Below are positions 15,574-30,512 of a DNA stretch of 34,491 nt, one piece after another. Each line of letters starts with the position of its first letter. Position 1 is the first letter of the stretch. The stretch is from Candidatus Woesearchaeota archaeon (GTDB lineage: Archaea; Nanobdellota; Nanobdellia; Pacearchaeales; GW2011-AR1), in NCBI GenBank assembly GCA_964479015.1, contig CAYZJM010000002.1:1-34491 (forward strand). Direction: 5' to 3'. The position numbers and the translations under genes were made by a program. The notes below the pieces were generated by a model. The model was not told where the DNA came from, did not search any database, and saw nothing but the letters and a program-made list of their open reading frames with translations.

Positions 15574-15852
15574 ATGAGAATAAAGAAAATAACAGAGATT
15601 ATTGGTTCTAGGGTGTACACAGATAATGGGGATTATTTTGGAGAGATAGAAGAATCAAATCTTCATGAAAATAAAATTTCTGGATGGAAAATTAGAGTAG
15701 GAGGAAGTATTGCTTCTTTGATTGGGGGCGCGAGAGGAGTGATAATTCCCCATCAATTTGTTAAAGCAATAAGTGATATAGTTATAATAAACTCTTCTGC
15801 CTTGCCAAAAACCGATCAAGGATCTGAGGGACCTTCTGAAGAGTTAATGTGA
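15574..15852 (+). CDS. PRC-barrel domain protein
   Basis: The 92-aa protein has GSRVYTDNGDYFGEIEESNL...ISGWKIRVGG...GVIIPHQFVKAISDIVIIN, which is typical of small archaeal PRC-barrel proteins. A tatttaaat TATA box (15545..15553) lies 25 nt upstream. Confidence 0.6.
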   Translation: MRIKKITEIIGSRVYTDNGDYFGEIEESNLHENKISGWKIRVGGSIASLIGGARGVIIPHQFVKAISDIVIINSSALPKTDQGSEGPSEELM

Positions 15853-15858
15853 TTTAAA

Positions 15859-16362: not shown

Positions 16363-16417
16363 GAAGTGGCTAGTTATTTTAGAAACATATTTAAATATCT
16401 CTCTCTAAATTACATTT

Positions 16418-16993
16418 ATGATTAAAGAGGCATTACTTTTACAGTCCGCTTCCCTTTATGGGTCGGGGGGTTTTGGGAATATTTTAGATGCTTGGGCAAA
16501 AGCAGGTGTTTTTGATTATATGATTCCTTTTCTTTTAATATTTTCACTTGTGTTTGGGATATTAACCCAGTTGAAGATTTTTAAGGAAAACAAGTCTATT
16601 AATGCAATTATTGCATTAGCTGTAGGGCTAATGTCTTTACAGTTTGGTTTTGTTTCTGCATTTTTTTCAGAAATTTTTCCAAGGCTGGGTGTAGGATTGG
16701 TCATTCTTTTAGTTCTTATGATCTTATTTGGGTTGTTTGCCCCTAGTAAAACATGGGTGACTTATACCTTTGTAATAGTTTCGCTGATTGTCTTTGTTGT
16801 TGTTTTAGCTAATAGTGCTGATTCAGTTCAATGGATGTCTACAGGGGTTTTAGCAGAGATAAATTGGGATGTTTATCTTCCATGGATAGTTCTTGGGATT
16901 ATGATTGCAATAGTTATTGGAGCATCAAAATCAAAGTCTCAAACGCAAGATGCAAGCTCAAAGTTTATGAAAGCGCTTGCAGAAAGTAGTTAA
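16418..16993 (+). CDS. Multi-pass membrane protein, unknown family (paralogue of 15859..16362)
   Basis: See the paralogue alignment above. It has its own agaaacatatttaaata BRE/TATA (16381..16397) 26 nt upstream of the ATG. Confidence 0.6.
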   Translation: MIKEALLLQSASLYGSGGFGNILDAWAKAGVFDYMIPFLLIFSLVFGILTQLKIFKENKSINAIIALAVGLMSLQFGFVSAFFSEIFPRLGVGLVILLVLMILFGLFAPSKTWVTYTFVIVSLIVFVVVLANSADSVQWMSTGVLAEINWDVYLPWIVLGIMIAIVIGASKSKSQTQDASSKFMKALAESS

Positions 16994-17005
16994 AATTCAA
17001 GCTGA

Positions 17006-17770
17006 TTATTTTTTTGATTTTTTAGAAGTCTTCTTTTTTGGAGCTTTTTTAGAATTTGATTTTTTAGAAGTGTGTTTTTCAGAGTGCTTTTTATTTGTTG
17101 TTTTGTGGGTTGAAGAAATCACCTTATTAAAAGAATCTTGCATCATAGACATCTCTTTTTTTATACTTTCTATATTATCCCCATAAGAACCAACTTTATC
17201 AAGAATAGAGATTTGTAGTTTATCGATAATTGTTTCGATTCTCTTAAGCCTTTCTGATAGATTTTTGATTTTTGTTTCTGAAAGAGTTTTAAATTCTTCA
17301 ATATCTTCTATCTTTTTTCTTATTTTTTCTATGTTTTCTGAAAAAACTTGTTCAGATATTTCAATCACTGTCCCAGTACTTATCCCCCCAGAACCATAAT
17401 ACTGTTGAGAGGAATCATATCCCCCACTTTGTTTAGGATAATATTCATCATAATCTTGTTGGCTTGGTTGTGATTGTTGCATTTGGTATCCGTTGGAAGG
17501 TTGAGGAGTATATGTATCATCTTCTGATATCTCCTGACTTTTAGGAGAAGAATTCCCAGGAGGGTTTTGTGAATCTTGATATCCGTATTCTGGAGGAGCA
17601 CCGTATTCGTCATTTTCTTCCCCTTCTGATACTGCATTTTTTATTTGAGCTTGACTGAATGCCTCATTTATTTCTTTAGGAGTTATCCCTTGTTTTTTTA
17701 ATCCAGAAACTATTTCTTCATCTGATTGACCCTCATTTCTCATTTTTGAAATTTTGTCTAGTATTCCCAT
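17006..17770 (-). CDS. Hypothetical protein: short helical N-domain, Q/S/Y/G/P-rich low-complexity region, coiled coil and Lys-rich tail
   Basis: This is a 254-aa ORF. It begins MGILDKISKMRNEGQSDEEIVSGLKKQGITPKEINEAF. A stretch of about 75 aa follows (YGYQDSQNPPGNSSPKSQ...QQYYGSGG). A heptad-like region comes next (KIRKKIEDIEEFKTLSETKIKNLSERLKRIETIIDKLQ). The protein ends in KKHSEKHTSKKSNSKKAPKKKTSKKSKK. Confidence 0.6.
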   Translation of the reverse strand: MGILDKISKMRNEGQSDEEIVSGLKKQGITPKEINEAFSQAQIKNAVSEGEENDEYGAPPEYGYQDSQNPPGNSSPKSQEISEDDTYTPQPSNGYQMQQSQPSQQDYDEYYPKQSGGYDSSQQYYGSGGISTGTVIEISEQVFSENIEKIRKKIEDIEEFKTLSETKIKNLSERLKRIETIIDKLQISILDKVGSYGDNIESIKKEMSMMQDSFNKVISSTHKTTNKKHSEKHTSKKSNSKKAPKKKTSKKSKK

Positions 17771-17777
17771 TATCTTT

Positions 17778-18095
17778 TTATTTTTTTTCTAGTTTATTTG
17801 GTTGGAACATTTTTGCTTGTTTAGCCAGAATTTCTAAATCATCTTTTCTGGCAAATTTTGAAAATTCATCTGAAGCCATTTCTAAAAAAGACATTAATCT
17901 TTCTACATTTTGTTTAATTGTTTCTAATTCCTTTTTTATCCCAAGAATATCCTCATTATTTTTTTCTCTAACTTCTATGAGGTTTTTTCCAATCAAAAGG
18001 ATTTGATTTCTTAAGTTCCTATTTCTTTCTTCCAAGTCTCTTATTCTTATATTCAAATTAGAAGATGAATTTGGATTTAGATTCTCTTTTTCCAT
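17778..18095 (-). CDS. Small coiled-coil protein, unknown function
   Basis: The 105-aa protein is almost entirely heptad-like (IRIRDLEERNRNLRNQILLIGKNLIEVREK...KKELETIKQNVERLMSFLE). A leaderless-type TATA box lies 25 nt upstream on the minus strand. Confidence 0.55.
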   Translation of the reverse strand: MEKENLNPNSSSNLNIRIRDLEERNRNLRNQILLIGKNLIEVREKNNEDILGIKKELETIKQNVERLMSFLEMASDEFSKFARKDDLEILAKQAKMFQPNKLEKK

Positions 18096-18116
18096 AAAAA
18101 GGAGAAGTTAGTGTGG

Positions 18117-18151
18117 TTTAAAATTGTTTTGTTCAACATAAAGATTTTAAA
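18117..18151. promoter_or_regulatory. Back-to-back divergent TATA boxes in the 77-nt gap between the coiled-coil gene and the pilus ATPase
   Basis: tttaaaat at 18117..18124 (aattttaaa on the minus strand) is centred about 25 nt from the minus-strand ATG at 18095. attttaaa at 18144..18151 is centred about 25 nt from ATG 18173. Confidence 0.5.
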
Positions 18152-18172
18152 CAGTGCTTGTTTGTTTTGGTT

Positions 18173-20461
18173 ATGCAATTTAATAAAGAAACACCTTTAT
18201 TTGCTTATGAAACTCAAAGAGAGGGGGGAGAAGATATTTTATACATCAATTGTATTGGAGCACAATATGTACCAAGTATTATTGATTCTCCAGAGATTAT
18301 GGAAAAGACCTTTGACATTTTGATGGAAAACCCAAATGTTTCCAGGGTTGTTTTTGTTCAACAAAAAAATTATAGTTATGGTTTTGAAGAAACTTCTTTA
18401 TTGATTGAGATTGCCCAGCTTTATGTGTATCTATTCAAACAAGAAAAAGTTCTTTCTAAAGAGAAACTTTCTCCAAATTATGACGATTTTTTTAACCAGA
18501 GATATAATCAGATTTTTTCATTTTTATTTTTATTAAAAAGAGATCCTCTTGCAGCTTATTTTGATTTGAAAAGAATAATTATTGAATCTAAAATGAATCT
18601 TGATAATCTTGGAGGGGGATACAAACTTGATCAAAATAATTATATTCTTTTTTTAGAGAAAATTTTTTCTTTATTAGAGAATACAAAATTGATAAAATCT
18701 CTTTTACCCTATTCCAATGATTATAGAAAAAGAGATAGAGAGATTTATCATAAAATATTCAAACCAAATATAATCCCTAATTTTACATTTACAAGATTAG
18801 TATCTGAAATTCCTAATGATGCAGAAATTGTAGACCAGTATAAAATCTCAAATGAAGGGGATGATGAATCTGTTGTGACTATTCTAAAAAAGAAAAATGA
18901 GTCTAAATATATCTATCATTTGGTTCCCCCAGAAAATTCTTTAAATGAAGAACAGAGCATGCTTTTGAATTTAGCCAGAGGAGTTTTGATGGAACATCAA
19001 CCAAAAGCAGAAGAATTTACTGAGGCAGAAAGAACAAGGCGGGTTTTTTTTAATATTTCTAAAGATCTTCTCCAAGATTTAGCAAAAAGTAAAGGAATCA
19101 GTATAGATTATGCTGGGTTAAATAAGTTAGCAACGATAATTGTGAGGCATACAATTGGTTTTGGATTAGTGGAGGTTTTATTGCAGGACAAAAGATTACA
19201 GGATATTGTTTTAAATGCTCCAATCCCGTCAACTAATATCTTTTTGAGGCATCAGGATTATGATGAATGTTATACCAATATCCTTCCAAGTCAAGAAGAT
19301 GCAGATTCTTGGGCGGCTAAGTTTAGAATGATTTCTGGAAGGCCTTTAGACGAAGCAAATCCTGTTCTTGATACCCAATTAGAGATTGGGAATATTAGTT
19401 CAAGAATTTCAATTATACAACAACCCCTTTCACCAAAAGGATTATCATATGCAATTAGAAGACATAGAGAAGAACCTTGGACTCTTCCTCTTTTTGTTAA
19501 GAATGGGATGATGAATTCTTTTGCAGCAGGATTACTAAGTTTCTTAGTTGATGGTTCTAGAACAATGTTAGTTGCAGGGACAAGAAGTTCAGGTAAAACC
19601 TCTCTTTTAGGTAGTTTGATGTTAGAGATATCTCCTAAATATAGGATGATTGTTATAGAGGATTCCTTAGAACTCCCATTAAATTCTTTAAGAAATCTCA
19701 ATTATGATACTGTTAGAATGAAGGTTAAATCTGCACTTTCAAGTACAAGTAATGAAGTCTCTGCAGATGATGGTATAAGGACAAGTTTAAGATTAGGGGA
19801 TAGTTCATTGATAGTTGGAGAAGTTAGAAGTACTGAAGCAAAAGCATTATATGAAGCGATGAGGGTTGGAGCACTTGCAAATGTTGTTGCCGGGACAATT
19901 CATGGGGCAAGCCCTTATGGTGTTTTTGATAGGGTTGTTAATGATTTAGAAGTTCCTGCTACAAGTTTTAAAGCAACAGATATCATTATGGTAGCAAATC
20001 CAATAAAGTCTCCAGATGGGTTACATTCTTGGAAAAGACTTTTACAGGTTTCAGAAGTTAGAAAACACTGGAAGAAAGACCCTTCTCAAGAAAATGGATT
20101 TGTAGATTTATTAAGATATAACGTTGAAAAAGATCAGTTAGAACCAAGTGATGATTTAATTAATGGAAATAGTGAGGTTATAAAAGAGATAGCTTCTAGT
20201 GTTAAAGGTTGGGCCGGCAATTGGGATGCTGTTTATGATAATATTCAACTTCGTGCTAAAATTAAAGAAGAATTAGTTAATGCGGCAGAAAGAACAGGAG
20301 ATGAAAGACTTTTAGAAGCAGAATTTACTGTTTTATCTAATGAGGTTTTTCATAAAATTTCAGAAAAAGTAAGAAAAGAAGAAGGATTACCAAAATCAGA
20401 AAAAGTTTTTCCAGAGTGGAAAGAATGGCTAAATAAAGAGATAAAAAAAAGAAAATCTTAA
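18173..20461 (+). CDS. Type IV pilus/archaellum-class secretion ATPase (FlaI/PilB/VirB11 superfamily), 762 aa
   Basis: Walker A is AGTRSSGKTS. The Asp box/Walker B regions are MIVIEDSLEL and LIVGEVRSTEA. The His box is AGTIHGASP. The N- and C-terminal extensions are long. The track starts at TTG 18158. ATG 18173 fits the TATA spacing better. Confidence 0.85.
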   Translation: MQFNKETPLFAYETQREGGEDILYINCIGAQYVPSIIDSPEIMEKTFDILMENPNVSRVVFVQQKNYSYGFEETSLLIEIAQLYVYLFKQEKVLSKEKLSPNYDDFFNQRYNQIFSFLFLLKRDPLAAYFDLKRIIIESKMNLDNLGGGYKLDQNNYILFLEKIFSLLENTKLIKSLLPYSNDYRKRDREIYHKIFKPNIIPNFTFTRLVSEIPNDAEIVDQYKISNEGDDESVVTILKKKNESKYIYHLVPPENSLNEEQSMLLNLARGVLMEHQPKAEEFTEAERTRRVFFNISKDLLQDLAKSKGISIDYAGLNKLATIIVRHTIGFGLVEVLLQDKRLQDIVLNAPIPSTNIFLRHQDYDECYTNILPSQEDADSWAAKFRMISGRPLDEANPVLDTQLEIGNISSRISIIQQPLSPKGLSYAIRRHREEPWTLPLFVKNGMMNSFAAGLLSFLVDGSRTMLVAGTRSSGKTSLLGSLMLEISPKYRMIVIEDSLELPLNSLRNLNYDTVRMKVKSALSSTSNEVSADDGIRTSLRLGDSSLIVGEVRSTEAKALYEAMRVGALANVVAGTIHGASPYGVFDRVVNDLEVPATSFKATDIIMVANPIKSPDGLHSWKRLLQVSEVRKHWKKDPSQENGFVDLLRYNVEKDQLEPSDDLINGNSEVIKEIASSVKGWAGNWDAVYDNIQLRAKIKEELVNAAERTGDERLLEAEFTVLSNEVFHKISEKVRKEEGLPKSEKVFPEWKEWLNKEIKKRKS

Positions 20462-20523
20462 GGTTTTTTATTATTCTACTTTTAATCTGATAATTTTATA
20501 AAGTTTGAAATTCTTTAGGATAT

Positions 20524-20784
20524 ATGGAAAAATTAAGTAAAAAAAGGGAATTTAAGAAATTTAAAAGAACTATGTTTGCATATATCTCGATAGGGTTGCT
20601 TGCATCTTCACTTGTTTTTACCTCTTCAGATATTACAGGGCATTCTATTGCATCAACTTCCCAATTGTCTAATACTATTGGGGTTATTCTTTTTTTAGGG
20701 GGATTAGTTTTTGCTTATGTCCATTTGAGATATGAAAATTTTAAAGTCCGTAGAAACAGCAGAAAAATTAAGAAGAGTTCTTAA
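20524..20784 (+). CDS. Small two-TM membrane protein, unknown function (pilus locus)
   Basis: The 86-aa protein has a basic N-terminus, two hydrophobic helices and a basic tail. A ttttataaa TATA box (20494..20502) lies 26 nt upstream of the ATG. Confidence 0.5.
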   Translation: MEKLSKKREFKKFKRTMFAYISIGLLASSLVFTSSDITGHSIASTSQLSNTIGVILFLGGLVFAYVHLRYENFKVRRNSRKIKKSS

Positions 20785-20856
20785 TTTTAAACAGATATGT
20801 AACCTCAGAAATTAGTTCTCCAAACATTTATTAATTTAGTTTTTCTTCTTTTTAAA

Positions 20857-20863
20857 GAGGTGA
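20857..20863 (+). promoter_or_regulatory. Shine-Dalgarno-like site (gaggtga) for the platform-protein gene
   Basis: aaagaggtgaggatATG. GAGGTGA is complementary to the conserved 16S 3' end and ends 4 nt before ATG 20868. Confidence 0.6.
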
Positions 20864-20867
20864 GGAT

Positions 20868-23054
20868 ATGTCAAAAAAGAGACCAAACAGAAAAGCAGAT
20901 GTTAAGGACATTTTGGATAAATATGGAAAAAAGATAGAGAATCAGATGAATACTTCTCGTCCAGTGAGAAAAAAAGATATAAAAAAAAGTTATAGCAAAG
21001 AGTATACTCTTTTTAAAGAAGAGATGGCCCCTCAATGGTCAAGGTATGAAAAATGGTGCCATAGTTTAGGAAAAATTATAAAGGTTAATGCTTCTGAAAA
21101 AGATAAGAAGGAAATACAAAGAAATCTTGAAATTGCCCATCTTGATGTAGAACCATGGCAATCTTTATCCTTAAGCATCATCGTTTTTTTAATAATTTTT
21201 CTTTTAGGAATCTTTAGTTCTATAGGGGTTTTTCTTATTACTGATTCTTTTCCAGTATTGTTTTTTCTTTTAACAGTCTCTATGTCTTTATTCCTTTTTT
21301 ATTATATGAAAAATTATCCTAAAAGACTTGCAAATAAGTGGAGACTTAAGGCTTCTAGTCAGATGGTTCCAGCAATACTGTATATTGTTGTCCATATGAG
21401 GCACACTCCAAATCTTGAAAAAGCAATTTCATTCGCATCTCAACATTTAGAGTATCCTTTATCTTTAGATCTAAAAAAAGTATTTTATAATGTTGAAGTT
21501 GGGAAGTTTTCTACAATAAAAGAGAGTTTGGAAAATTATTTACAAGGTTGGAGAGATTATTCTCAAGAATTTATAGAATCTTTTAATCTTATTGAAAGTA
21601 GTTTATTCGAGCCAGATGAATCAAGGAGAATTGCTACTCTTGAAAGATCTTTGCAAGTTATTCTTGATGGCGTTTATGATAAAATGCTTAAATTTGTCCA
21701 TGATATTAAGAGTCCTATCCAAAGTACATATATGCTCGGAACAACTCTCCCTGTTTTGGGTTTGGCTTTATTGCCTTTAGCTTCAATAATGGTAGGAGAT
21801 TTTCTTAAAACGGGTCATGTATTCTTTTTATATAATCTTCTTATCCCATTTATTGCCTTTTTTTTAATGAGCAAGTATATGATGATGCGTCCTGGAGGGC
21901 ATGGGGAGACAAATCTTTTAGAAAGAAATCCTCTTTATTCAGAATACAAGAAAAATGATCATTATTTCAAATCATTTTTAATCTGCTTGCCTTTGTTTAT
22001 TTTAGGATTTTTGCCATTTATATTTCAGTACACTCCTTTACCCGAAATTTTGAATTTATCAAGAGATTTTACTTTTTCCCAGATAGGGATGAATTTCTTT
22101 GGGGATGTGAAATTTTTTGGTTTTGTCCAGGAAGGAGGAGAAACTTATGGCCCATTTGGAATTGGATCTTTGATATTAGGAATGTTTATCCCTTTAGGGA
22201 TGGCTTTGTTTTTTTCTTTAGCATATAAGGGAAAGACAAAAGATCTTATAAAAGAGAGAGAAAATACAAATAAGTTAGAGAGCGAGTTTAAAAATTCATT
22301 ATTTCAGTTAGGAAATAGGATAGGAAATGGAGACCCTCCAGAAGTTGTTTTTGGAAAAGTTGCAAGGTCTTCAAAAGGGCTGAATTCTGCGGATTTTTTT
22401 AAAAGAGTAGATTATAATATAAGACAAATGGGGATGAATGTAGAAAGAGCTATTTTTGATAAAAACAGAGGAGCGATAAATCATTACCCTTCAGATTTAA
22501 TTTCTACAAGTATGAGAATTCTTGTTGAAGCTTCTAAAAAAGGATTAAAGATTGCTGCAGTTAGTCTTATGAGTATTTCACAATATGTTAAAAATATTCA
22601 GAAAATTACTGCAAGACTAAGAGATATGCTCGCAGAGATTATTTCTGATATGAAAAGTAATATGACTTTTCTTGCACCATTACTTTCTGGAGTTGTTGTA
22701 GGTTTAGCAATGATGATAAGTTCTATTTTAGGGAAAATCGCTGGTTTTGAAGAGTTAGGAGGGAGTGCGGAGATAGGATTAGGAGGTGTTGAGGAGATAA
22801 TGGGGGTTTTTAGTCAAAATGTGATGATCCCTCCTTATTTTTTACAAGTTGCAATAGGGATTTATCTTATTCAAATAATTTTTATTCTTACAGATACTTT
22901 AGTGACTATAGATTCAGGAGAGGATAGATTAGAAAAGACAAACCAAACAGGAAAGAATTTAGTTAAGGGAATCTCTCTTTATACTGTTGTTGCTTTAATT
23001 TCTACAATCGCGTTGTTTATTCTCTCTTCGGTTGTTTTAGGAAATTTAGGGTGA
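20868..23054 (+). CDS. Polytopic pilus platform protein (FlaJ/TadC/T2SS-F-like), 728 aa
   Basis: TM bundles alternate with two soluble helical domains of about 130 aa (about residues 150-290 and 460-600). This is the duplicated T2SS-F architecture. The gene lies just downstream of the ATPase, after one small membrane-protein gene. No single diagnostic motif can be read by eye. Confidence 0.65.
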   Translation: MSKKRPNRKADVKDILDKYGKKIENQMNTSRPVRKKDIKKSYSKEYTLFKEEMAPQWSRYEKWCHSLGKIIKVNASEKDKKEIQRNLEIAHLDVEPWQSLSLSIIVFLIIFLLGIFSSIGVFLITDSFPVLFFLLTVSMSLFLFYYMKNYPKRLANKWRLKASSQMVPAILYIVVHMRHTPNLEKAISFASQHLEYPLSLDLKKVFYNVEVGKFSTIKESLENYLQGWRDYSQEFIESFNLIESSLFEPDESRRIATLERSLQVILDGVYDKMLKFVHDIKSPIQSTYMLGTTLPVLGLALLPLASIMVGDFLKTGHVFFLYNLLIPFIAFFLMSKYMMMRPGGHGETNLLERNPLYSEYKKNDHYFKSFLICLPLFILGFLPFIFQYTPLPEILNLSRDFTFSQIGMNFFGDVKFFGFVQEGGETYGPFGIGSLILGMFIPLGMALFFSLAYKGKTKDLIKERENTNKLESEFKNSLFQLGNRIGNGDPPEVVFGKVARSSKGLNSADFFKRVDYNIRQMGMNVERAIFDKNRGAINHYPSDLISTSMRILVEASKKGLKIAAVSLMSISQYVKNIQKITARLRDMLAEIISDMKSNMTFLAPLLSGVVVGLAMMISSILGKIAGFEELGGSAEIGLGGVEEIMGVFSQNVMIPPYFLQVAIGIYLIQIIFILTDTLVTIDSGEDRLEKTNQTGKNLVKGISLYTVVALISTIALFILSSVVLGNLG

Positions 23055-23076
23055 AAGATTTATTAATCTTTATTTT
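23054..23076 (+). promoter_or_regulatory. BRE/TATA promoter element, copy 1 of a 23-nt near-identical pair
   Basis: aaagatttattaatctttatttt. The core tttattaa (23059..23066) is centred 25-26 nt upstream of ATG 23088. The second copy at 25153..25175 differs at one base and has the same 11-nt spacing to its ATG. Confidence 0.6.
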
Positions 23077-23087
23077 CTTTACATTTT

Positions 23088-23237
23088 ATGGAAAAAAGAG
23101 GGATTGTTTCAGATTATCTTCCATGGGTACTGATTGCAATTGCAGTTCTTACAATTGTTTTAGTCTCTATTTTTTTGATGAAGGATACCGGTTTTGAACT
23201 AATTGATAGAATTAAAAATTTGTTTGTTGGGAGATAA
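23088..23237 (+). CDS. 49-aa pilin-like protein with a class III signal peptide (not in the ORF track)
   Basis: My own translation is MEKRGIVSDYLPWVLIAIAVLTIVLVSIFLMKDTGFELIDRIKNLFVGR. It has a KRG motif followed by a hydrophobic helix. The stop TAA overlaps the next ATG (TAATG at 23235..23239). The promoter and first codons are paralogous to the gene at 25187 (MRKRGN). Confidence 0.6.
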   Translation: MEKRGIVSDYLPWVLIAIAVLTIVLVSIFLMKDTGFELIDRIKNLFVGR

Positions 23238-23611
23238 TGGCAGAACTTACAATCGGACAGTTGATTAAAGTAATCCTTGGGGTTTTAGTTGTAGTTGTAG
23301 TCATGATAGGGCTTTTTGTATTTTTTAAAGGGCAAGTTTTTGGTATTTTTGAGGGTTATGGTGGTGAAGATATGGGGCTCATTCCTTCAGAAGAATCTGA
23401 AGATGAAACAATGTATGAAGAGGATAAAGAGGGAATAACCGAAGAGGAAGATGTAGAAGAAGGGAGTAACGATTGTTTAGAAGGAGGAGTACGGGTTTAT
23501 AAAAAAAAGGAGCCTCAAGTTTCAGAGTGTTGTTATGGTGATTATTGTTCAAAAAAAGTTTTGTTTTTCTGCACTGAAAGGAGATGTTGTTCTGTTGAAC
23601 AAGGATGTTAA
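23237..23611 (+). CDS. Small membrane-anchored Cys-rich protein (pilus locus)
   Basis: The 124-aa protein has an N-terminal hydrophobic helix (LIKVILGVLVVVVVMIGLFVFF) without a clear [KR][KR]G site. An acidic linker follows. The C-terminal 45 aa carry 8 Cys (C..CC..C..C..CC..C). Confidence 0.6.
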   Translation: MAELTIGQLIKVILGVLVVVVVMIGLFVFFKGQVFGIFEGYGGEDMGLIPSEESEDETMYEEDKEGITEEEDVEEGSNDCLEGGVRVYKKKEPQVSECCYGDYCSKKVLFFCTERRCCSVEQGC

Positions 23612-23613
23612 AA

Positions 23614-24267
23614 ATGGATAAAAAAGGATTTTTGTTAGGTGAAGAGACAGTTAAAATAATTATATCTGTGATTGTGATTGCTTTTTTGATTTATTTTCTA
23701 ACTTCTCTCTATTTCGCACATGAAAAAAATAAGGATTTAGAACTTGCTGAAAGTTCATTAGACCAATTAGTTTCTTCTATAAATGAAGGGGCATCTTCTG
23801 TTGAAATTTATAATCCTACTAACAAAGTTCTTTTTACATGGCCGATGTATACCGAGATTGATGATGAAATAGAGGAGGTTATGCCTCAATCTTGTGAGAT
23901 AAAAGGTTGGGATAATTGTATTTGTATTTGTGGTGTAAATCATCTTAAACAAAATATAGAGAGTGAAGAAGAAAGGAGATGGTGGGAGAAAGCTCTTGAT
24001 GTTGTGACGTGGGTTCCTAGGAAAATAGTAGACTATGGAGTAAGACCTCTAGCAGAATATTTTGGGATTTGGGATAATGAAATTATAGAAATGGCAGAGA
24101 GGTGTAGTTCTGATTGGGTTTGCAAGGAATCTCAAGGAGAAGTAATAGCAGGGGTTAAAGATGATGGCGATTTTGAAGGGAGGCTTTTGATTATAGAGAA
24201 CCCCCCGTTAGAATTAAATCTAAAATATGAAGATGAGGGGGTTTTAATAATAAAAGATAATGGATGA
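23614..24267 (+). CDS. Pilin-like protein with a class III signal peptide and a Cys-containing C-domain
   Basis: MDKKG|FLLGEETVKIIISVIVIAFLIYFL. The track starts 3 codons earlier at 23605 (MLKMDKKG), and either start is possible. The mature part has the Cys clusters QSCEIKGWDNCICICG and ERCSSDWVC. Confidence 0.65.
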   Translation: MDKKGFLLGEETVKIIISVIVIAFLIYFLTSLYFAHEKNKDLELAESSLDQLVSSINEGASSVEIYNPTNKVLFTWPMYTEIDDEIEEVMPQSCEIKGWDNCICICGVNHLKQNIESEEERRWWEKALDVVTWVPRKIVDYGVRPLAEYFGIWDNEIIEMAERCSSDWVCKESQGEVIAGVKDDGDFEGRLLIIENPPLELNLKYEDEGVLIIKDNG

Positions 24268-24355
24268 TTTGATAAAATATTTAATCTGGATTGTATTCTT
24301 TGGAGTGGTGTTAACAGGAGTAATTTTAATGTTAAAGAGGTTTGGGATCTTATGA
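24260..24355 (+). CDS. Possible 31-aa single-TM micro-protein
   Basis: My own translation is MDDLIKYLIWIVFFGVVLTGVILMLKRFGIL. Its ATG overlaps the preceding stop (ATGGATGA). It fills the only otherwise empty gap in this operon. There is no other support. Confidence 0.25.
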   Translation: MDDLIKYLIWIVFFGVVLTGVILMLKRFGIL

Positions 24356-24364
24356 GGTTTTAAT

Positions 24365-25147
24365 ATGGAATTGAGAGATAAAAAAAGAGAAAAGAAAGGA
24401 GAAATAACAACAAAACAATTAGTCACAATAATAATCCTAATTGTGAGTTTTACAGTAATTTTATATTTCATATTCAGATTGAATCTAACTGGAACAACAG
24501 ATAAAGAAATTTGCCATAACTCTGTTGTTTTGCAAGCAAAATCTTTTGGTATTGCTGGTTCCTTAGATTGTAAAACTAGTTATGTTTGTATCTCTGGAGG
24601 AGGGGGATGTGAAGGGATTTTAGAAGACAGTGTTGTAGAAGTTAATCCTGAAGATAAAAATGAAGTTTTTAAAGCAATTGCTGATGAGATGGCTGATTGT
24701 TGGTGGATGTTTGGAGAAGGGAAATTAGATTATACCTCTAAGAATATTGTATCTGATAAAGTAGGATGTGCTATTTGTTCCGTTATAAAATTTGATGAAG
24801 AGATTATCGATAGATATAGTGAAGAAGGAATTAGGTACCAAGAACTTTTAGAATTTTTAGAAAGAGAAAAAGTTAGTGATGATGAAACATATCTCCATTA
24901 TCTTACTTCTTACTATAGTCTGGAAGATCTTTTTGGAGATTTTGAAGAGATTAATGGATATAGTCAGAGGCTAATTTCATTAGAAGAAAAACATATTATT
25001 CAAACTGTTCAGGCAAAAGAATCCTTGATTAAAGAAATTTTGAAATGGAAACTTAATGATTACTATATGATTCCTCCATTTTTATATGAGATTGGGGAAA
25101 GTCCTTTAGGAGTAGATGGCTGTGATGAATATGTCACAAATGCATAA
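24365..25147 (+). CDS. Pilin-like protein with a class III signal peptide and a Cys-rich C-domain
   Basis: MELRDKKREKKG|EITTKQLVTIIILIVSFTVILYFIF. There are 9 Cys in the mature part (EICHN, LDCKTSYVCISGGGGCEG, ADCWW, GCAICS, GCDEY). gaggt lies 6 nt upstream of the ATG. Confidence 0.65.
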   Translation: MELRDKKREKKGEITTKQLVTIIILIVSFTVILYFIFRLNLTGTTDKEICHNSVVLQAKSFGIAGSLDCKTSYVCISGGGGCEGILEDSVVEVNPEDKNEVFKAIADEMADCWWMFGEGKLDYTSKNIVSDKVGCAICSVIKFDEEIIDRYSEEGIRYQELLEFLEREKVSDDETYLHYLTSYYSLEDLFGDFEEINGYSQRLISLEEKHIIQTVQAKESLIKEILKWKLNDYYMIPPFLYEIGESPLGVDGCDEYVTNA

Positions 25148-25152
25148 TTTCT

Positions 25153-25175
25153 AAAGTTTTATTAATCTTTATTTT
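25153..25175 (+). promoter_or_regulatory. BRE/TATA promoter element, copy 2 of the 23-nt pair
   Basis: aaagttttattaatctttatttt. The core tttattaa (25158..25165) is centred 25-26 nt upstream of ATG 25187. Confidence 0.6.
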
Positions 25176-25186
25176 TTATTCTATTT

Positions 25187-25657
25187 ATGAGAAAAAGAGG
25201 GAATATTCTTATAGAGAATGTTATTTTTATAATTTTAAATGTTGTTTTTATATCTATTCTGATCTTTTTTGTTCTTTCTAAAGCAAATGATGCTTCAGTT
25301 ATGGAAGAAGAGTATGCAAAACAAATTGCACTAATGATTGATTCTGCAAGACCTGGGATGATAATTAATTTAACAATGGAAAATGCAATTGAAAAGGCCA
25401 AGGAGAATTTTGGAGAAGAAGATTTTGAGAAGATGATAAATATAGATGGAAACAAGGTTACTGTAGGTTTAAGAAAAGACGGGGGTTATAGTTACTCTTT
25501 TTTTAATGATGTGGAGGTAAGTTATTACCCTCTTGATGATAAGAATTACATTTTTATTATAGATGAAAAAGAGAATCGTGAAGAGATTCAAGAAGAAACT
25601 ATAGAAGAAATTCAAGAAGAAAATGTAGAGGAGAATTTAGGAGATTCAAATGAATAA
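25187..25657 (+). CDS. Pilin-like protein with a class III signal peptide and an acidic repeat tail
   Basis: MRKRG|NILIENVIFIILNVVFISILIFFVL. The C-terminus is EEIQEETIEEIQEENVEENL. Confidence 0.65.
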   Translation: MRKRGNILIENVIFIILNVVFISILIFFVLSKANDASVMEEEYAKQIALMIDSARPGMIINLTMENAIEKAKENFGEEDFEKMINIDGNKVTVGLRKDGGYSYSFFNDVEVSYYPLDDKNYIFIIDEKENREEIQEETIEEIQEENVEENLGDSNE

Positions 25658-26189
25658 AAAAGCTACAGAAAAGGTTGTTTCAGTTTATTGGTTTTTTATT
25701 TTATTTATTGTAGCAGGAGCAGTGGTATTTATGGTGTCTGCTTTTTATGGTTCACCTTATGATGTTAGAGAGATGGAGGAGAAGATTCTTTCAGATAAGG
25801 TTGCAGATTGTGTTTCTTCAGGAGGTTACATCAATTCAGAAATTTTAGAAGACGAGAATTTTAAAAATAATTTTTTAGATAGATGTGATTTAACATTTGA
25901 AGTTGAAGACCAGTACGGTTGGAGCGAAAGTTCAGAATATTATCTCAATATAGGAATTTATGAATTTAATTATGAATCTGATTTTGATAGAATCCAAGAA
26001 GATGAAGAAGTCCAATTAGGAGAGAAGTTATTTGAAGTGGAAGAAGGGAGTATTAATCTAAAATCATTTTATAATTCAGATTCTAATGATAACTCAAAAG
26101 AGAGAAAGATGTATGTTCTTGATGAGGAGGGGAATCAGTATGTAATTAAAGTTTTATCAATAGTTAGAAAAACAGAAAAAAATGAATAA
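25650..26189 (+). CDS. Pilin-like protein with a probable class III signal peptide
   Basis: MNKKA|TEKVVSVYWFFILFIVAGAVVFMV. There is an 8-nt overlap with the upstream gene (ATGAATAA), and aggag lies 7 nt upstream. Confidence 0.55.
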   Translation: MNKKATEKVVSVYWFFILFIVAGAVVFMVSAFYGSPYDVREMEEKILSDKVADCVSSGGYINSEILEDENFKNNFLDRCDLTFEVEDQYGWSESSEYYLNIGIYEFNYESDFDRIQEDEEVQLGEKLFEVEEGSINLKSFYNSDSNDNSKERKMYVLDEEGNQYVIKVLSIVRKTEKNE

Positions 26190-26715
26190 AAAAATAGGAA
26201 ATCTTGCAAAGATAAATAAGAAAGGTCAAGCAAGCGATGCAGTAGTATGGATTGTCGCAACAGCAATAATTGCCACAATTCTTTTGATTTCAATTTCAAT
26301 TTCGATTGATTTAGGCGGGAATAAAACATTCAACCAAGATACAGAATTTGATTTGTTCGCTAAAAAATCTTTGACCAGTTATTTATTAACACAGGGACAA
26401 TCAGGAGATATAATTTTTGAAGAGTTGAAAGAAGAAAACAATTTTAACGATTTTAATAAAAATCTTGCAATCGGGATTTTTAAGGGATTTTATGAAAGAG
26501 ATTATTTGTATGGAAAAGTTTGGTTAGGGTTCAATTCTGAGGGAGGATGGAATTGGAATATTCCAGGTAATAATCCTTTTGGGGAGAAACCCCTTATAGA
26601 AACAGAAGGAGGGGTAGGAATGAAGGTTGGTTCGTTACCACTTTTAGAGATGATTCATTTAGAAGAGAGTCAAGGGAAAAATAACTGGATTGAATTAATC
26701 TTATCACGAAATTAA
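26182..26715 (+). CDS. Pilin-like protein with a class III signal peptide
   Basis: MNKKIGNLAKINKKG|QASDAVVWIVATAIIATILLISISI. It has the same 8-nt ATGAATAA overlap junction as the previous gene. Confidence 0.6.
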   Translation: MNKKIGNLAKINKKGQASDAVVWIVATAIIATILLISISISIDLGGNKTFNQDTEFDLFAKKSLTSYLLTQGQSGDIIFEELKEENNFNDFNKNLAIGIFKGFYERDYLYGKVWLGFNSEGGWNWNIPGNNPFGEKPLIETEGGVGMKVGSLPLLEMIHLEESQGKNNWIELILSRN

Positions 26716-26729
26716 GGGAGAAATAAAAG

Positions 26730-27095
26730 ATGGAAAAATTTTTATCAAATAAAAAAGGAGGAGCGCCTGTTTTTATTTTAGTTATAGGAGTAGTTGCTAT
26801 TTGTATCCTAGCTTTGTTTAGTTTTATTTCTTTTGAAATTAAGGGGCCAAGTAAAGAAATCGGATTAGAGGCATTTGAAGGGATTTCTTCAGATGTCGAA
26901 TCCTTTGAGTTTTACCTTAATGTAGGTTTTAGTGAAGAAGAATCTCTTAAAAAAATGGTTTATTTTCAAAAAGATGCTATATCTAAGATGAGGTCGAGAG
27001 GGGGAGATTTAGAAGCAGAGATTGATGGAGAGAATTTAGTAATAAAAAGAAAAAGCAATAATCTTGAAGTTACTTACTACTATTCTCTAGATTGA
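26730..27095 (+). CDS. Pilin-like protein with a class III signal peptide
   Basis: MEKFLSNKKG|GAPVFILVIGVVAICILALFSFI. agggag lies upstream of the ATG. Confidence 0.6.
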   Translation: MEKFLSNKKGGAPVFILVIGVVAICILALFSFISFEIKGPSKEIGLEAFEGISSDVESFEFYLNVGFSEEESLKKMVYFQKDAISKMRSRGGDLEAEIDGENLVIKRKSNNLEVTYYYSLD

Positions 27096-27160
27096 ATAAT
27101 TTTTATTAAAATAATAGAAATATATTTTAGATTTTTTAGATTCTTTTCTTTATTAGGTCA

Positions 27161-27328
27161 TTTAAAAAGAAACATTTATAAATAAAAAGATCATAATCCA
27201 GATATGATTGGTAAAAGAGGTCAAGGTTTAAGCACTAATGCAATTATTCTTATAGTTCTTGGAGTTATTATATTAGCAGTTTTAGTTGTAGGATTTACAA
27301 TTGGATGGGGCCAGATAGCTCCTTTCAT
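27161..27328 (+). repeat. Duplicated segment, copy 1 (promoter plus the first 125 nt of the pilin gene)
   Basis: An ungapped by-eye alignment with 27686..27853 gives 34 of 43 matches upstream of the ATG. All 125 of the first coding nt (27204..27328) match. Confidence 0.9.
27166..27182 (+). promoter_or_regulatory. BRE/TATA promoter of pilin paralogue 1
   Basis: aagaaacatttataaa. The core tttataaa (27175..27182) is centred 25-26 nt upstream of ATG 27204. The same element recurs at 27691..27707. Confidence 0.6.
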
Positions 27329-27569
27329 CTCGCAGACAAATGTAGATACAATCCAAACTAGTTGTGAAACAGCCTGTGTTCTTGAAAGTAATTATGGATT
27401 TTGTGCCGAAGAGAGAGAATTAAGATGGGATGGAAAGACTCTTGAGGGGACTTGTAACGACTTTTCAATGAATAACACTCTTATAGCGAATGGGATAACA
27501 ATTTCTAGTTGTCCTGGAATAACTTGCGAGGGAGTTGTAGAAAAAAGTAGCGAAGAAGAAAGTGAATAA
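27204..27569 (+). CDS. Candidate major pilin, paralogue 1 (121 aa, class III signal peptide, 6-Cys C-domain)
   Basis: MIGKRG|QGLSTNAIILIVLGVIILAVLVVGF. It is monocistronic with its own TATA box and a T-rich downstream region. The mature domain has 6 Cys (C-x3-C-x8-C ... C ... C-x5-C). Confidence 0.8.
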   Translation: MIGKRGQGLSTNAIILIVLGVIILAVLVVGFTIGWGQIAPFISQTNVDTIQTSCETACVLESNYGFCAEERELRWDGKTLEGTCNDFSMNNTLIANGITISSCPGITCEGVVEKSSEEESE

Positions 27570-27632
27570 GAAATTTAGAATTAATTTTAAAAATTTTTAA
27601 TTTATTTTGAGTAGATGGTATTTATTTAATCA

Positions 27633-27659
27633 ATTATTATTATTATTATTATTATTATT
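27633..27659. repeat. Perfect (ATT)9 microsatellite in the inter-pilin spacer
   Basis: I counted nine uninterrupted ATT units, followed by AT. The tract ends 41 nt upstream of the TATA box of pilin paralogue 2. Confidence 0.95.
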
Positions 27660-27685
27660 ATGTGTTTTATTTTTATAATTAATGG

Positions 27686-27853
27686 TTTGAAAAGAAACAT
27701 TTATAACTATAAAAATCATGATATAGATATGATTGGTAAAAGAGGTCAAGGTTTAAGCACTAATGCAATTATTCTTATAGTTCTTGGAGTTATTATATTA
27801 GCAGTTTTAGTTGTAGGATTTACAATTGGATGGGGCCAGATAGCTCCTTTCAT
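27686..27853 (+). repeat. Duplicated segment, copy 2 (promoter plus the first 125 nt of the pilin gene)
   Basis: See copy 1. The coding part 27729..27853 is identical to 27204..27328. Confidence 0.9.
27691..27707 (+). promoter_or_regulatory. BRE/TATA promoter of pilin paralogue 2
   Basis: aagaaacatttataac. The core (27700..27707) is centred 25-26 nt upstream of ATG 27729. Confidence 0.6.
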
Positions 27854-28154
27854 TTCTACAAGTAATGTAAATGCAATTAAAATTGAGTGCCAAAATGCTT
27901 GTGAGCTTGAAAGTTTTTATGATTTTTGTTTAAAAGATAGAGAAGTTAAAGCAGAGGAGTATAATAGCCCTAAAGATGCTAGTTGTTTTATTCTTTCAGA
28001 GGATTATAGTAATCTCGGGATAGAATCTTGTCCTGCTTTAGATTCAGAATGTGAGGATTTTTTCTCAGACCTCAAAGAAGAAGAAAATGAACTTCCAAAA
28101 GCAGAGGAGTCTCCAATAGTAGTAGAGGTGCCTGATCCTAAAACTGAAGATTAG
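27729..28154 (+). CDS. Candidate major pilin, paralogue 2 (141 aa, class III signal peptide, 6-Cys C-domain, acidic/Pro tail)
   Basis: The first 43 aa are identical to paralogue 1. The six Cys positions are conserved in an otherwise diverged C-domain. The track's start at 27660 would add 23 residues that run through the promoter element, so ATG 27729 is preferred. Confidence 0.8.
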   Translation: MIGKRGQGLSTNAIILIVLGVIILAVLVVGFTIGWGQIAPFISTSNVNAIKIECQNACELESFYDFCLKDREVKAEEYNSPKDASCFILSEDYSNLGIESCPALDSECEDFFSDLKEEENELPKAEESPIVVEVPDPKTED

Positions 28155-28357
28155 AATTTATAAAATTGATATTTTTAAAATGGATTATAGTGTTGGTTCT
28201 GATAAAAGGAATAAAGGGAAGGATAAAAAGAGAGAGAAAAAGAAACACCCTTATAAAAAAGGCGGGAAAAAAAGAAGTGAGAAAAAGACAAATCAAAAGA
28301 GATAGGTTTTGGGGTTATAAAAAATAGTTTTATAAAGAATTTAATTCAATTTTATTT

Positions 28358-29209
28358 ATGGAGGGGGTAATATTCTTATTTGTTCTTGCTTTAATCTGGA
28401 TAGTCTTTGCAGTTGTGGGGGATTGGAAAAATTCAGAGATCCCTAACTGGTTAAATTTTTCTTTAATCATTTTTGCATTGGGATTTAGGTTTTTTTATCC
28501 TTTTTTTTCAGAAGCAGGATTCTCATTTTTTTATCAAGGTTTATTAGGATTAGGATTCTTTTTTATTATGGGTAATCTTTTTTATTATTGTAAAATTTTT
28601 GCAGGAGGAGATGCAAAATTAATGATTGCTCTTGGACCCATACTCCCAATGTGTAATAATTTCTTTTCTAATTTAGATATCTTTTTCTTTTTTTTACTTG
28701 CTTTCCTATTTTTTGGGGCGATTTATGGGATGATATTTAGCGGGTATATGGTTTTTAAGAATTTTGGCATATTTCGTAGGGGTTTTAATAATTATTTAAA
28801 AAAGAATAAGACAATTTTAAAAATATCGACTACTACGGGATTCATTTTTATAGCTCTAGGTTTGATAGATTTTGTTTTCATTTTTGCAGGTTTTTTTATA
28901 TTAATAACTTCATTGTTGGTTGCATCAGCAAAATCAATCGATGAGCGCATTATGGTTAGGGAAGTTCAACCAAACAAATTAAGGGAAGGAGACTGGTTAG
29001 AAAAAAGTGTAAAGTGTAAAGACAAATTGATTAAATCAAATTGGGAAGGGCTTAATAAAGAAGAAATTATGTTATTAAAAAAGAGAAATAAAATTGTTAA
29101 GATTAAAGAGGGATTGCCTTTTGCACCGGTTTTTCTTTTTAGTTTCTTATTTATTGGTTATGCTTATTTTTTTAATGAAGAATTATTCTCTTTAATTGGT
29201 TTAATCTAA
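28358..29209 (+). CDS. Prepilin/preflagellin peptidase (A24 family, FlaK/PibD/EppA-like)
   Basis: The first catalytic Asp is in VGDWKNSEIPN (D22, 28421..28423) and the second in FAGGDAKLM (D85, 28610..28612). The protein is polytopic with a soluble insert before the last helix. A ttttataaa TATA box (28328..28336) lies 26 nt upstream. Confidence 0.8.
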   Translation: MEGVIFLFVLALIWIVFAVVGDWKNSEIPNWLNFSLIIFALGFRFFYPFFSEAGFSFFYQGLLGLGFFFIMGNLFYYCKIFAGGDAKLMIALGPILPMCNNFFSNLDIFFFFLLAFLFFGAIYGMIFSGYMVFKNFGIFRRGFNNYLKKNKTILKISTTTGFIFIALGLIDFVFIFAGFFILITSLLVASAKSIDERIMVREVQPNKLREGDWLEKSVKCKDKLIKSNWEGLNKEEIMLLKKRNKIVKIKEGLPFAPVFLFSFLFIGYAYFFNEELFSLIGLI

Positions 29210-29987: not shown

Positions 29988-30512
29988 TCATCGATTATCT
30001 TTAATATAATTAGAGATATAATTTTCATATTTTCTTACAGAATCTAATTTTGGGATTGTTTCATCAGGGATTCTTATTCCAAACTTTTGTTCTACAGTAT
30101 AAGCTACTTCATGTATATCTAAAACATCCATTCCCATCTCTTCGAAACTCTGGTTGGGCATTACCTTTCTAGGGTCTTGTTCAAAGATATGATTGACTAA
30201 GATTCCTTCTAATTTGCTTGAAATTTTTGTTCTATCAAAGTTATTTGATGTTTCTTGTGTTTTAGAGATATAATCTTCATATTTTTTTAGAGAATCTAAT
30301 TTAGGAATTGTTTCATCAGGAATTTTTATTCCAAATTTTCCTTCTATCATATATGCTATCTCATGTGTATCCAAACTATCCATCCCCATCTCTTCAAAAC
30401 TCTTATTTGGATTTATATTTATTGGATTGTATCCAAAGATATGTTCCACTATAATTCCTTCTACTCTCTTTGAAATTTCTGTTTTATTAGATTCATCTGA
30501 ATTTTCTTTCAT
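29988..30512 (-). CDS. Tandem acyl-carrier-protein (ACP-like) didomain protein
   Basis: There are two 71-aa repeats. Repeat 1 is ISKRVEGIIVEHIFGYNPININPNKSFEEMGMDSLDTHEIAYMIEGKFGIKIPDETIPKLDSLKKYEDYIS. It aligns without gaps, by eye, to bacterial ACP (IEERVKKIIGEQLG...LGADSLDTVELVMALEEEF..EIPDEEAEKI...AIDYI). Repeat 2 has GMDVLD at the same place. Confidence 0.8.
   Translation of the reverse strand: MKENSDESNKTEISKRVEGIIVEHIFGYNPININPNKSFEEMGMDSLDTHEIAYMIEGKFGIKIPDETIPKLDSLKKYEDYISKTQETSNNFDRTKISSKLEGILVNHIFEQDPRKVMPNQSFEEMGMDVLDIHEVAYTVEQKFGIRIPDETIPKLDSVRKYENYISNYIKDNR
30012..30476 (-). repeat. Internal tandem duplication encoding the two ACP-like domains (30264..30476 and 30012..30224)
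   Basis: Residues 13-83 and 97-167 of the protein are collinear repeats separated by a 13-aa linker. Confidence 0.85.

Follow-up and report, generated by a model that had tools for sequence, protein, structure and literature searches.

A conserved type IV pilus-like operon of Pacearchaeota, with peptidoglycan hydrolase domains fused to orthologues of its pilin-like proteins in related loci

The stretch of DNA analysed here (the window, 34,491 nt, positions 1 to 34,491 of the forward strand of contig CAYZJM010000002.1, assembly GCA_964479015.1, from a Candidatus Woesearchaeota archaeon; all coordinates are positions in it) has a GC content of about 30% and an archaeal character. Between positions 18173 and 29209, its plus strand encodes an assembly ATPase, an 86-aa protein with two transmembrane (TM) helices, a 728-aa platform protein, nine proteins with class III signal peptides, a leaderless relative of the latter and a prepilin peptidase of family A24 (Table 1). 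This block is a type IV filament (TFF) operon, an identity which we consider secure, since it follows from the homology of the ATPase, the platform and the peptidase, from the class III N-termini and the enrichment of their motif in the block, and from gene packing and synteny. The genes are tightly packed, four pairs of them overlapping, and the intergenic gaps widen solely ahead of the genes of two pilin-like proteins, p121b (108 nt) and p141 (159 nt), and of the peptidase (203 nt). A former description made from the letters of this DNA, the sequence-only reading, had listed these parts, and open reading frame (ORF) calls and motif reading found them where it had placed them. Its claim of a full TFF parts list in a DPANN archaeon also holds, with T2SSE and A24 above their cut-offs, the platform recognised by remote homology and class III substrates present. 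Concerning its count of about eleven short genes, eleven short ORFs do lie between 23088 and 28327, but the 53-aa ORF at 28166-28327, present in one of 83 related loci, was rejected as probably not a gene, and the 124-aa ORF has no basic-Gly site. The start of the 164-aa ORF at 27660 most likely lies at 27729 (141 aa).

The ATPase product is exactly the NCBI gene call on record. It matches Pfam T2SSE (E=1.1e-14, 54.3 bits against a cut-off of 24.9 bits) over residues 408-602 of the 767-aa ORF, and contains the sequences GTRSSGKTS, MIVIE/LIVGE and GTIHGAS, which are the Walker A, Asp/Walker B and His boxes. Among solved structures, the best relative is afGspE (2OAP, 5.5e-29), followed by CpaF (2.2e-21) and FlaI (8.7e-17), all alignments beginning at residue 221 or later. 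In NCBIfam, the best match was FlaI (NF058587, 5.3e-39, 134 bits where the equivalog cut-off is 550), then TadA (2.3e-35, also under its equivalog cut-off) and, weaker than both, the bindosome ATPase BasE (1.4e-19, 70 bits against a cut-off of 1000); since these scores lie far under the equivalog cut-offs, the ATPase is a member of this clade and the orthologue of no named system. The enzyme is extended at both ends, by a clade-specific N-terminal stretch of about 220 aa and by a helical tail of about 55 aa at the C-terminus. The N-terminal extension is conserved in 60 orthologues, with a column identity of 0.52-0.72 compared with 0.74-0.94 in the core, and its profile found nothing in the PDB. 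Subsystem-specific N- and C-terminal extensions of archaeal TFF ATPases have already been described (bioRxiv 10.64898/2026.04.22.720090), and the size of this one is notable, not unprecedented.

The identity of the platform had to be approached through its relatives. Among 36 divergent ones (22-42% identity), linked to the query profile at an E of 1e-70 or better, 13 match T2SSF, the best at 3.2e-10. In addition, the top match of the family profile in the PDB was, weakly (E=0.19), the cytoplasmic domain of EpsF, on the conserved motif FQLGNR..G.P.E. In the AlphaFold2 (AF2) model (pLDDT 68.6, pTM 0.66), which is all-helical apart from one loop at 388-433 with a beta-hairpin, some nine helices cross the membrane and two helical bundles are soluble. 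In Foldseek, a soluble bundle was superimposed on the cytoplasmic domains of OutF and EpsF (probability 0.97-1.0, TMt 0.66-0.71, rmsd about 3.2 A); whole-chain E-values were non-significant, the usable matches being domain-level ones to GspF-family cytoplasmic domains. Since the relatives match T2SSF, the profile matches EpsF and the soluble domain folds like OutF/EpsF, we conclude that the protein is a divergent TadC/FlaJ/GspF-type platform despite the failure of direct searches. It has more than 2,600 homologues (64-78% identity among the best 120), none with a precomputed Pfam domain and almost every named record being a "hypothetical protein", together with two JGI records called "TadB"; the profile search retrieved 1,190 clusters at 50% identity.

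As regards processing, the peptidase matches Pfam Peptidase_A24 (E=4.9e-10, 40.2 bits against a cut-off of 26.5 bits), its Asp22 (DWKNSEIP) and Asp85 (AGGDA) are invariant in 44 of 44 orthologues, and it is the last gene of the block in 46 loci. Its predicted substrates are nine proteins in which [KR][KR][GA] directly abuts a hydrophobic stretch of some 20 residues, with leaders ranging from MEKRG in the 49-aa p49 to GKRG in both p121b and p141 (Table 1). When a looser rule was applied to window ORFs of 60 aa or more, the other matches were one antisense shadow ORF and one multi-TM protein. Across 46 related loci the strict motif was present in 301 of 476 plus-strand ORFs within the block and in 10 of 718 outside it, an odds ratio of about 122, far above chance and computed over orthologues that are not independent, and the nine class III N-termini proposed from the sequence alone are thereby upheld. 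Moreover, each class III protein forms an orthologue group of its own, with a distinctive conserved mature N-terminus, in which Lys at -3, Lys or Arg at -2 and Gly at -1 are kept. Ordinary Sec signal anchors were rejected as an explanation of these N-termini, since [KR][KR]G abuts the hydrophobic segment, is conserved per group and is confined to the block beside an A24 peptidase.

The operon is widespread among relatives of the source organism. The platform is encoded in 468 GTDB species representatives, and over 83 loci the median identity is 72% for the ATPase, 65% for the platform, 50% for the A24 peptidase and 38-57% for the small proteins. Of the 46 loci holding both platform and peptidase, 43 carry a series of 6-13 class III ORFs between these two genes, with the order maintained, and even in a distant relative (L084) the platform gene is followed by small N-terminal-helix genes in the same pattern. 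Housekeeping genes around the operon are also syntenic across the loci, and therefore the operon is ancient and vertically inherited in the clade. This shows that a complete, strongly conserved operon of the type IV pilus (T4P) kind is a hallmark of the clade. Homologues carry the labels Pacearchaeota, Nanoarchaeia or Nanoarchaeota. Several contigs bearing the operon (L007, i.e. DATJPO010000041.1, P0023, P0051 and P0387) are publicly labelled as bacteria (Omnitrophota, Paceibacterota, Daviesbacteria), which are probably binning or classification errors.

Within the pilin block, p121b and p141 stand out as a pair. None of the 307 homologues of p121b has a Pfam domain, and those named are all labelled hypothetical. 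The protein has the invariant residues G6 Q7 G8 L9 S10 and six invariant Cys, its head being small, with three putative disulfides; the AF2 model, made for p121b among the nine pilin-like proteins, shows a helix of 25 residues (9-33) and a small alpha/beta head (pLDDT 81.9). The mature N-terminus (about 40 aa) of p141 is near-identical, the head domain divergent, and the consensus of the group is KRG/QGLSTNAIILI, where the slash marks the predicted cleavage site. The pair arose by a 259-nt duplication which includes an upstream element, AAAGAAACATTTATAA, a putative BRE/TATA promoter; just two exact copies exist in the window, other matches being at chance level. About 16 copies of ATT form a microsatellite (27633-27681) directly upstream of the second promoter-like element, and this repeat could permit slipped-strand, phase-variable expression of p141. 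p121b is read as the candidate major pilin, and both proteins, which share the duplicated leader and the TATA-like element, probably supply the shaft.

The remaining small proteins are more varied. The mature form of p49 has about 44 aa and no globular domain; its 60 orthologues (median identity 57%) share the consensus G/[VI][VI]S[ED]YLPW, with Gly at -1 in 87%, an acidic residue at +4 in 82% and Tyr at +5 in 71%. No Pfam Flp_Fap match was obtained with p49 and 12 orthologues; it resembles Flp/EpdE-type pilins and is an alternative shaft candidate. The orthologues of p124 have about 54 aa, the window copy alone being lengthened by an acidic, Cys-rich stretch of about 70 aa; its start, MAELTIGQLI, resembles the predicted mature N-terminus of p260, G/EITTKQLV (ELT[TI]xQ[LI]), and it may be a leaderless pilin-like protein. 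Consensus sequences of the other groups are G/FLL[AG]EE for p220 (Gly at -1 in 94%, Glu/Asp at +5 in 73%), G/E[IL]TTxQ for p260 (Gly at -1 in 78%, Glu at +1 in 77%), which is also marked by a Cys-rich head and by conservation of the motif CHNSVVL, G/NIL[VT]EN for p156 (acidic at +5 in 60%), G/xDK[IL]ISVYWF for p179, K[KR]A/QI[AG]ETxTW for p177 (Trp at +8 in 100%) and [GA]/D[IV]P[VI]TILV for p121a (Asp at +1 in 85%, acidic in 90%). Glu at +5 is a hallmark of bacterial type IV pilins and pseudopilins, and its presence in the p220 and p156 groups is unusual for an archaeal system.

Table 1. Features of the operon, its neighbourhood and related loci (L numbers); the slash marks the predicted cleavage site
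Feature	Position	Strand	Basis and remarks
Assembly ATPase, 762 aa, FlaI/GspE2/TadA-CpaF clade	18173..20461	+	Pfam T2SSE; ATG at 18173
Small two-TM membrane protein, 86 aa	20524..20784	+	ORF; no significant family match
Divergent TadC/FlaJ/GspF-type platform, 728 aa	20868..23054	+	Transitive T2SSF matches and fold
p49, tiny class III protein, MEKRG/IVSDYLPW...	23088..23237	+	Leader motif; 60 orthologue ORFs
p124, N-terminal-helix protein, MAELTIGQLIKV...	23237..23611	+	TM helix, no basic-Gly leader; about 21 loci
p220, minor-pilin candidate, MDKKG/FLLGEETVKI...	23605..24267	+	58 orthologues; no family match
p260, largest minor-pilin candidate, EKKG/EITTKQLV...	24365..25147	+	59 orthologues (201-467 aa); no family match
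p156, minor-pilin candidate, MRKRG/NILIENVIFI...	25187..25657	+	Glu at +5
p179, minor-pilin candidate, MNKKA/TEKVVSVYWF...	25650..26189	+	Window copy is the common short form
p177, minor-pilin candidate, ...INKKG/QASDAVVWIVAT...	26182..26715	+	30 orthologues
p121a, minor-pilin candidate, ...SNKKG/GAPVFILVIGV...	26730..27095	+	41 orthologues
BRE/TATA-like element AAAGAAACATTTATAA	27166..27181	+	About 22 nt upstream of p121b ATG; within duplicated segment
p121b, candidate major pilin, MIGKRG/QGLSTNAIILIVLG...	27204..27569	+	307 homologues
Second BRE/TATA-like element copy	27691..27706	+	Upstream of p141
p141, p121b paralogue (55% identity)	27729..28154	+	Start inferred from duplicated MIGKRG leader and orthologues
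Class III signal (prepilin) peptidase, A24, 283 aa	28358..29209	+	Pfam Peptidase_A24
cc105, coiled-coil protein	17778..18095	-	Transcribed divergently from ATPase; 58 loci, median identity 62%
cc254, low-complexity/coiled-coil protein	17006..17770	-	Adjoins cc105; 58 loci, median identity 43%
Amidase_2 in p179 orthologue	L001:11106-12152		Pfam 2.6e-23
Amidase_2 in p179 orthologue	L004:14443-15699		Pfam 1.7e-23
Amidase_2 in p179 orthologue	L025:14540-15670		Pfam 2.2e-26
C-terminal SLT in p156 orthologue	L053:7759-8799		Pfam 2.8e-16
C-terminal SLT in p156 orthologue	L072:10618-11631		Pfam 3e-6
C-terminal SLT in p121a orthologue	L045:15319-16140		Pfam 1.4e-15
VanY in p121b-like protein	L033:17991-19349		Pfam 5.5e-7

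In 18 related loci, peptidoglycan hydrolase domains are fused to orthologues of the pilin-like proteins of the window. By BLAST, Amidase_2 was found in 12 loci, SLT in 6 and VanY in 1, both SLT and VanY being present in L033. The Amidase_2 domain occurs in 13 ORFs of its 12 loci, 12 of these ORFs being p179 orthologues (in at least 11 loci) into which the domain is inserted. The matches given in Table 1 are all above the Pfam cut-offs, no plus-strand hydrolase match falls outside the pilin block, and a class III leader is present on nearly all of them. To our knowledge, archaea of this group have no murein of their own, and therefore the hydrolase modules imply contact with bacterial walls. 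Large extracellular murein transglycosylases have been noted in Pacearchaeota and Woesearchaeota, bacterial hosts being speculated upon (PMC8204110; bioRxiv 10.1101/2023.06.16.545063), and pili go unmentioned in these two papers. Our literature search found no description of peptidoglycan-hydrolase modules on pilins. What is new here is the fusion of hydrolases to orthologous pilin-like proteins, which connects the murein-degrading enzymes of Pacearchaeota with their suspected bacterial hosts via one concrete surface machine.

From these results we infer the formation of a filament, a major subunit, a tip complex and a role in host contact, according to the following scheme. The ATPase, a FlaI/TadA-like hexamer, would dock on the two cytoplasmic helical bundles of the platform, the dedicated A24 peptidase would cut the short basic leader of the nine prepilin-like proteins at [KR][KR]G, and the machine would polymerise the processed proteins via their hydrophobic N-terminal helices. 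The shaft would probably be made of p121b/p141, which have promoter-like elements of their own, the alternative being the 44-aa Flp-like p49, while p220, p260, p156, p179, p177 and p121a, in their fixed order, would probably form a priming or tip complex comparable to the minor pilins of bacterial T4P and type II secretion systems (T2SS). Modules of murein amidase, lytic transglycosylase or VanY type are present on the orthologues of sister lineages, and the filament would therefore most likely be a surface-adhesion or host-contact organelle which meets bacterial walls. Overall, we hold with moderate confidence that this is a vertically inherited, archaeal T4P-like operon of Pacearchaeota, most likely encoding a surface-adhesion or host-contact pilus that meets bacterial walls. 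A stronger version, in which it is a cross-domain host-contact organelle whose minor-pilin tip binds bacterial walls and digests them locally where Amidase_2, SLT or VanY is present, is tentative, and we give it less credence than its denial. If it were true, these archaea would be episymbionts or predators of bacteria, hydrolase-tipped pilins would be a new functional class of modular pilin, and the short-form proteins of the window would be a binding-only version of the tip.

Several results weigh against this picture. The window itself has no hydrolase-bearing pilin, the link with the cell wall being borrowed from relatives, and all of the best 120 of 229 homologues of p179 are of the short form (138-198 aa). 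The rule used for class III leaders approximates FlaFind, and the cleavage sites are predicted ones. No recurrent family was found for the pilin-like proteins in Pfam, NCBIfam and PHROGs, nor in Pfam for 129 orthologues, and no PDB neighbour was found for the p121b model by Foldseek (best E=2, solved archaeal pili included), in line with the earlier statement that the C-domains are unassignable. Regarding the platform, direct comparison with Pfam (PF00482), NCBIfam and PDB sequences gave noise only, and its N and C halves align in register but weakly (hhalign, 139 columns, E=0.006, probability 6%). The FlaJ/TadC assignment made in the sequence-only reading therefore stands by the T2SSF-matching relatives and the fold, not by a direct PF00482 match; that reading had named a failure of the ATPase and platform to match their models as a refutation, and the direct miss of T2SSF by the platform literally triggers it, the ATPase matching T2SSE, but remote homology overrides this miss. 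Lastly, three marine loci (L002, L003 and L074) have no pilin block at this position. In at least L002 and L003, two glycosyltransferases and a 39-aa ORF replace it (12268-14358), and an insertion of UvrA-UvrC-UvrB separates the small TM gene from the platform gene (3674-9938); in these marine relatives the pilin genes may lie elsewhere or have been lost.

Among other explanations, the least unlikely is a short pseudopilus for surface display or secretion, similar to a bindosome or a T2SS, in which the class III proteins would be functionalised cargo and no long pilus would be formed. The enzyme modules on class III proteins in 18 related loci would fit such a machine, as would the number and diversity of these proteins, among which a single major pilin is not evident, the weak BasE match, and the proposal of a 2026 census that archaeal TFF machineries are functionalised by class III signal peptide proteins which bear functional domains. 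Nevertheless, the system does not pass as a bindosome (Bas), BasE scoring far below its cut-off and below FlaI and TadA, and substrate-binding-protein domains being found by Pfam and NCBIfam in none of the nine class III proteins. Moreover, their invariant mature N-terminus, promoter-like element and paralogue expansion give p121b/p141 the look of a classic small major pilin, and an enzyme module is absent from most loci, the window included, so that we consider this explanation unlikely. A motility origin, i.e. a degenerate archaellum operon, has so little in its favour that it can practically be discarded: FlaI is the best NCBIfam match of the ATPase and cc105 weakly matches FlaC_arch, but the former is far below its cut-off, with the non-archaellar afGspE and then CpaF preceding FlaI in the PDB, and the latter is sub-threshold (1.4e-4, 22.6 bits against a cut-off of 27.8 bits), on a generic coiled coil. 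No archaellin (PF01917) was found in any window protein, no FlaF, FlaG, FlaH, FlaD/E or FlaX in window ORFs of at least 90 aa, and, FlaX aside, none of these in the 129 orthologues. This agrees with the sequence-only reading, which had recognised no archaellum-specific genes.

A third possibility is a DNA-exchange or uptake pilus, Ups- or Com-like, serving aggregation or DNA capture for recombinational repair or for nucleotide scavenging. Its attraction lies in the neighbours, since repair genes are syntenic with the operon on both sides, namely an XPF/ERCC4 nuclease (12440-13186) and a Hef-like helicase (13198-14760) on the minus strand, and an RPA-like protein (31023-31964) and RadA (32490-33524) on the plus strand, a neighbourhood which resembles the surroundings of the Ups pilus in Sulfolobales. 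UvrA-UvrC-UvrB is, as described, inserted beside the platform gene in marine relatives, and Pacearchaeota have been proposed to live off scavenged nucleotides (PMC8204110). Nevertheless, HIT, aEF-1beta and PRC-barrel neighbours are equally syntenic, so that the association with repair genes may be coincidental, adjacency being weak evidence in small streamlined genomes, a DNA-binding or Ced/ComEC-like import component was not seen in the window, and the hydrolase fusions point at cell walls rather than at DNA. We therefore regard a DNA pilus as improbable, though not as far-fetched as an archaellum, and retain the host-contact pilus as the preferred reading.

Apart from the repair genes, the flanks encode aEF-1beta, NDK and a class Ib (Tyr/Trp-type) aminoacyl-tRNA synthetase, the RPA-like protein having an OB fold. 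The 86-aa protein of the operon shows no T2SSF similarity in the Pfam scan and is poorly conserved in sequence (tblastn matches in just 10 of 83 loci), its slot being filled in L001-L003 by another small gene (125-158 aa); the position is always occupied. On the other side of the ATPase, the region 15574-18095 codes for two multi-TM proteins without annotation (167 and 191 aa), a PRC-barrel protein, cc105 and cc254, the Pfam scan of the last giving coiled-coil noise only. These proteins are kept beside the ATPase in 44-58 of 83 loci, and could either be accessories of the machine or just neighbours by synteny. In particular, cc105 is a possible cytoplasmic accessory and cc254 a possible accessory, the membership of both being uncertain; for cc105, synteny is insufficient as a proof because the housekeeping neighbours are equally syntenic. 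Further away, positions 244-5646 encode an 1800-aa predicted surface protease (S8 subtilase, I9 propeptide, FG-GAP repeat, He_PIG Ig-like domain), which, as far as its domains tell, would fit a lifestyle of extracellular degradation or host interaction. At 29988-30512, on the minus strand, lies a 174-aa protein which consists of a tandem pair of phosphopantetheine-binding (ACP-like) domains (PP-binding, 5e-17), unusual for an archaeon and present in one of 83 related loci.

The genomes of Pacearchaeota rank among the smallest of archaea, and we know of no cultivated member and of no known host. In this context, annotation largely misses the operon, since neither the platform nor any of the pilins is covered by existing models, and the nine new pilin families and the divergent T2SSF subfamily could be used in hidden Markov model libraries and for TFF classification. 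Pacearchaeota go unmentioned in two censuses of archaeal TFF systems (PMC4858521; 10.64898/2026.04.22.720090), and peptidoglycan and amidase are likewise unmentioned in the one of 2026 (10.64898/2026.04.22.720090). Furthermore, T4P components have been stated to be "missing in DPANN genomes", and pili have been used to call ultrasmall groundwater cells seen by cryo-TEM members of the bacterial Candidate Phyla Radiation (CPR) (bioRxiv 10.1101/2020.05.14.094862); the wide conservation of the operon in Pacearchaeota calls this criterion for telling CPR from DPANN cells into question.

Comparison with known systems places the operon among them as follows. T4P of Patescibacteria/Saccharibacteria (PMC11623550) are likewise conserved in ultrasmall, presumed episymbionts with reduced genomes, and a role in host binding has been proposed for them and, in Saccharibacteria, tested; nevertheless, those are bacterial T4aP with PilB/PilT, while the system of the window is of the archaeal FlaI/TadA type and has a single ATPase. 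Bacterial minor-pilin complexes (FimU-PilVWX-PilY1, GspHIJK), made of low-abundance pilin-like proteins, are likewise co-encoded sets of fixed order, and the related loci graft Amidase_2, SLT and VanY onto a pilin scaffold as in the modular pilins of Streptococcus sanguinis (PMC7541494; PMC9934059). Both likenesses are analogies, without similarity in sequence or fold, and the host of the window is a murein-free archaeon.

Regarding bacterial Tad/Flp, the ATPase likewise matches CpaF and TadA, a dedicated A24 peptidase is also part of the operon, and p49 is akin to Flp in size and in having an acidic-Tyr pair just past the cleavage Gly. This pair lies at +5/+6 in Flp; in p49, unlike Flp, it lies at +4/+5. 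No match to Flp_Fap (PF04964) or TadE (PF07811) was found in any pilin-like group, and, in contrast with Tad, the host is archaeal, the platform gene is single, and bacterial envelope parts such as a secretin are absent. Archaeal adhesion pili (Sulfolobus Aap, Haloferax PilA/PilB3C3) are built on the same basic plan, which combines an ATPase, a TadC-like platform and class III pilins, and among solved structures A. fulgidus GspE2 is the best relative of the ATPase. The cleavage context KRG/QG... is typical of archaeal pilins and likens p121b/p141 to them; the differences are the three-disulfide alpha/beta head of p121b, which has no PDB match, the larger number of conserved minor-pilin families and the bacterial-style Glu at +5 in two minor groups.

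Similar in composition is the Epd pilus of Methanococcus maripaludis (System 1), whose operon likewise combines ATPase and platform genes with a dedicated prepilin peptidase and several minor pilin-like proteins, and also has a very short pilin without globular domain, EpdE there and p49 here. The Epd cluster comprises 11 genes, and System 1 has been reported in some DPANN archaea (bioRxiv 10.64898/2026.04.22.720090). In view of this cluster and of the ATPase extensions already known, the claim of the sequence-only reading that the sizes and the number of pilins exceed known archaeal loci was overstated. In contrast with the Epd pilus, however, where two platform genes are present (EpdJ/EpdK type), the window has one fused 728-aa platform which escapes PF00482, its ATPase has an uncharacterised N-terminal domain of some 220 aa, and its pilin families have no detectable similarity to Pfam or NCBIfam pilin models. 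The system thus departs from the specific criteria for the archaellum, Epd/System 1, Tad and the bindosome, and its platform subfamily, ATPase N-domain and nine pilin families are unannotated, while the TFF core is recognisable.

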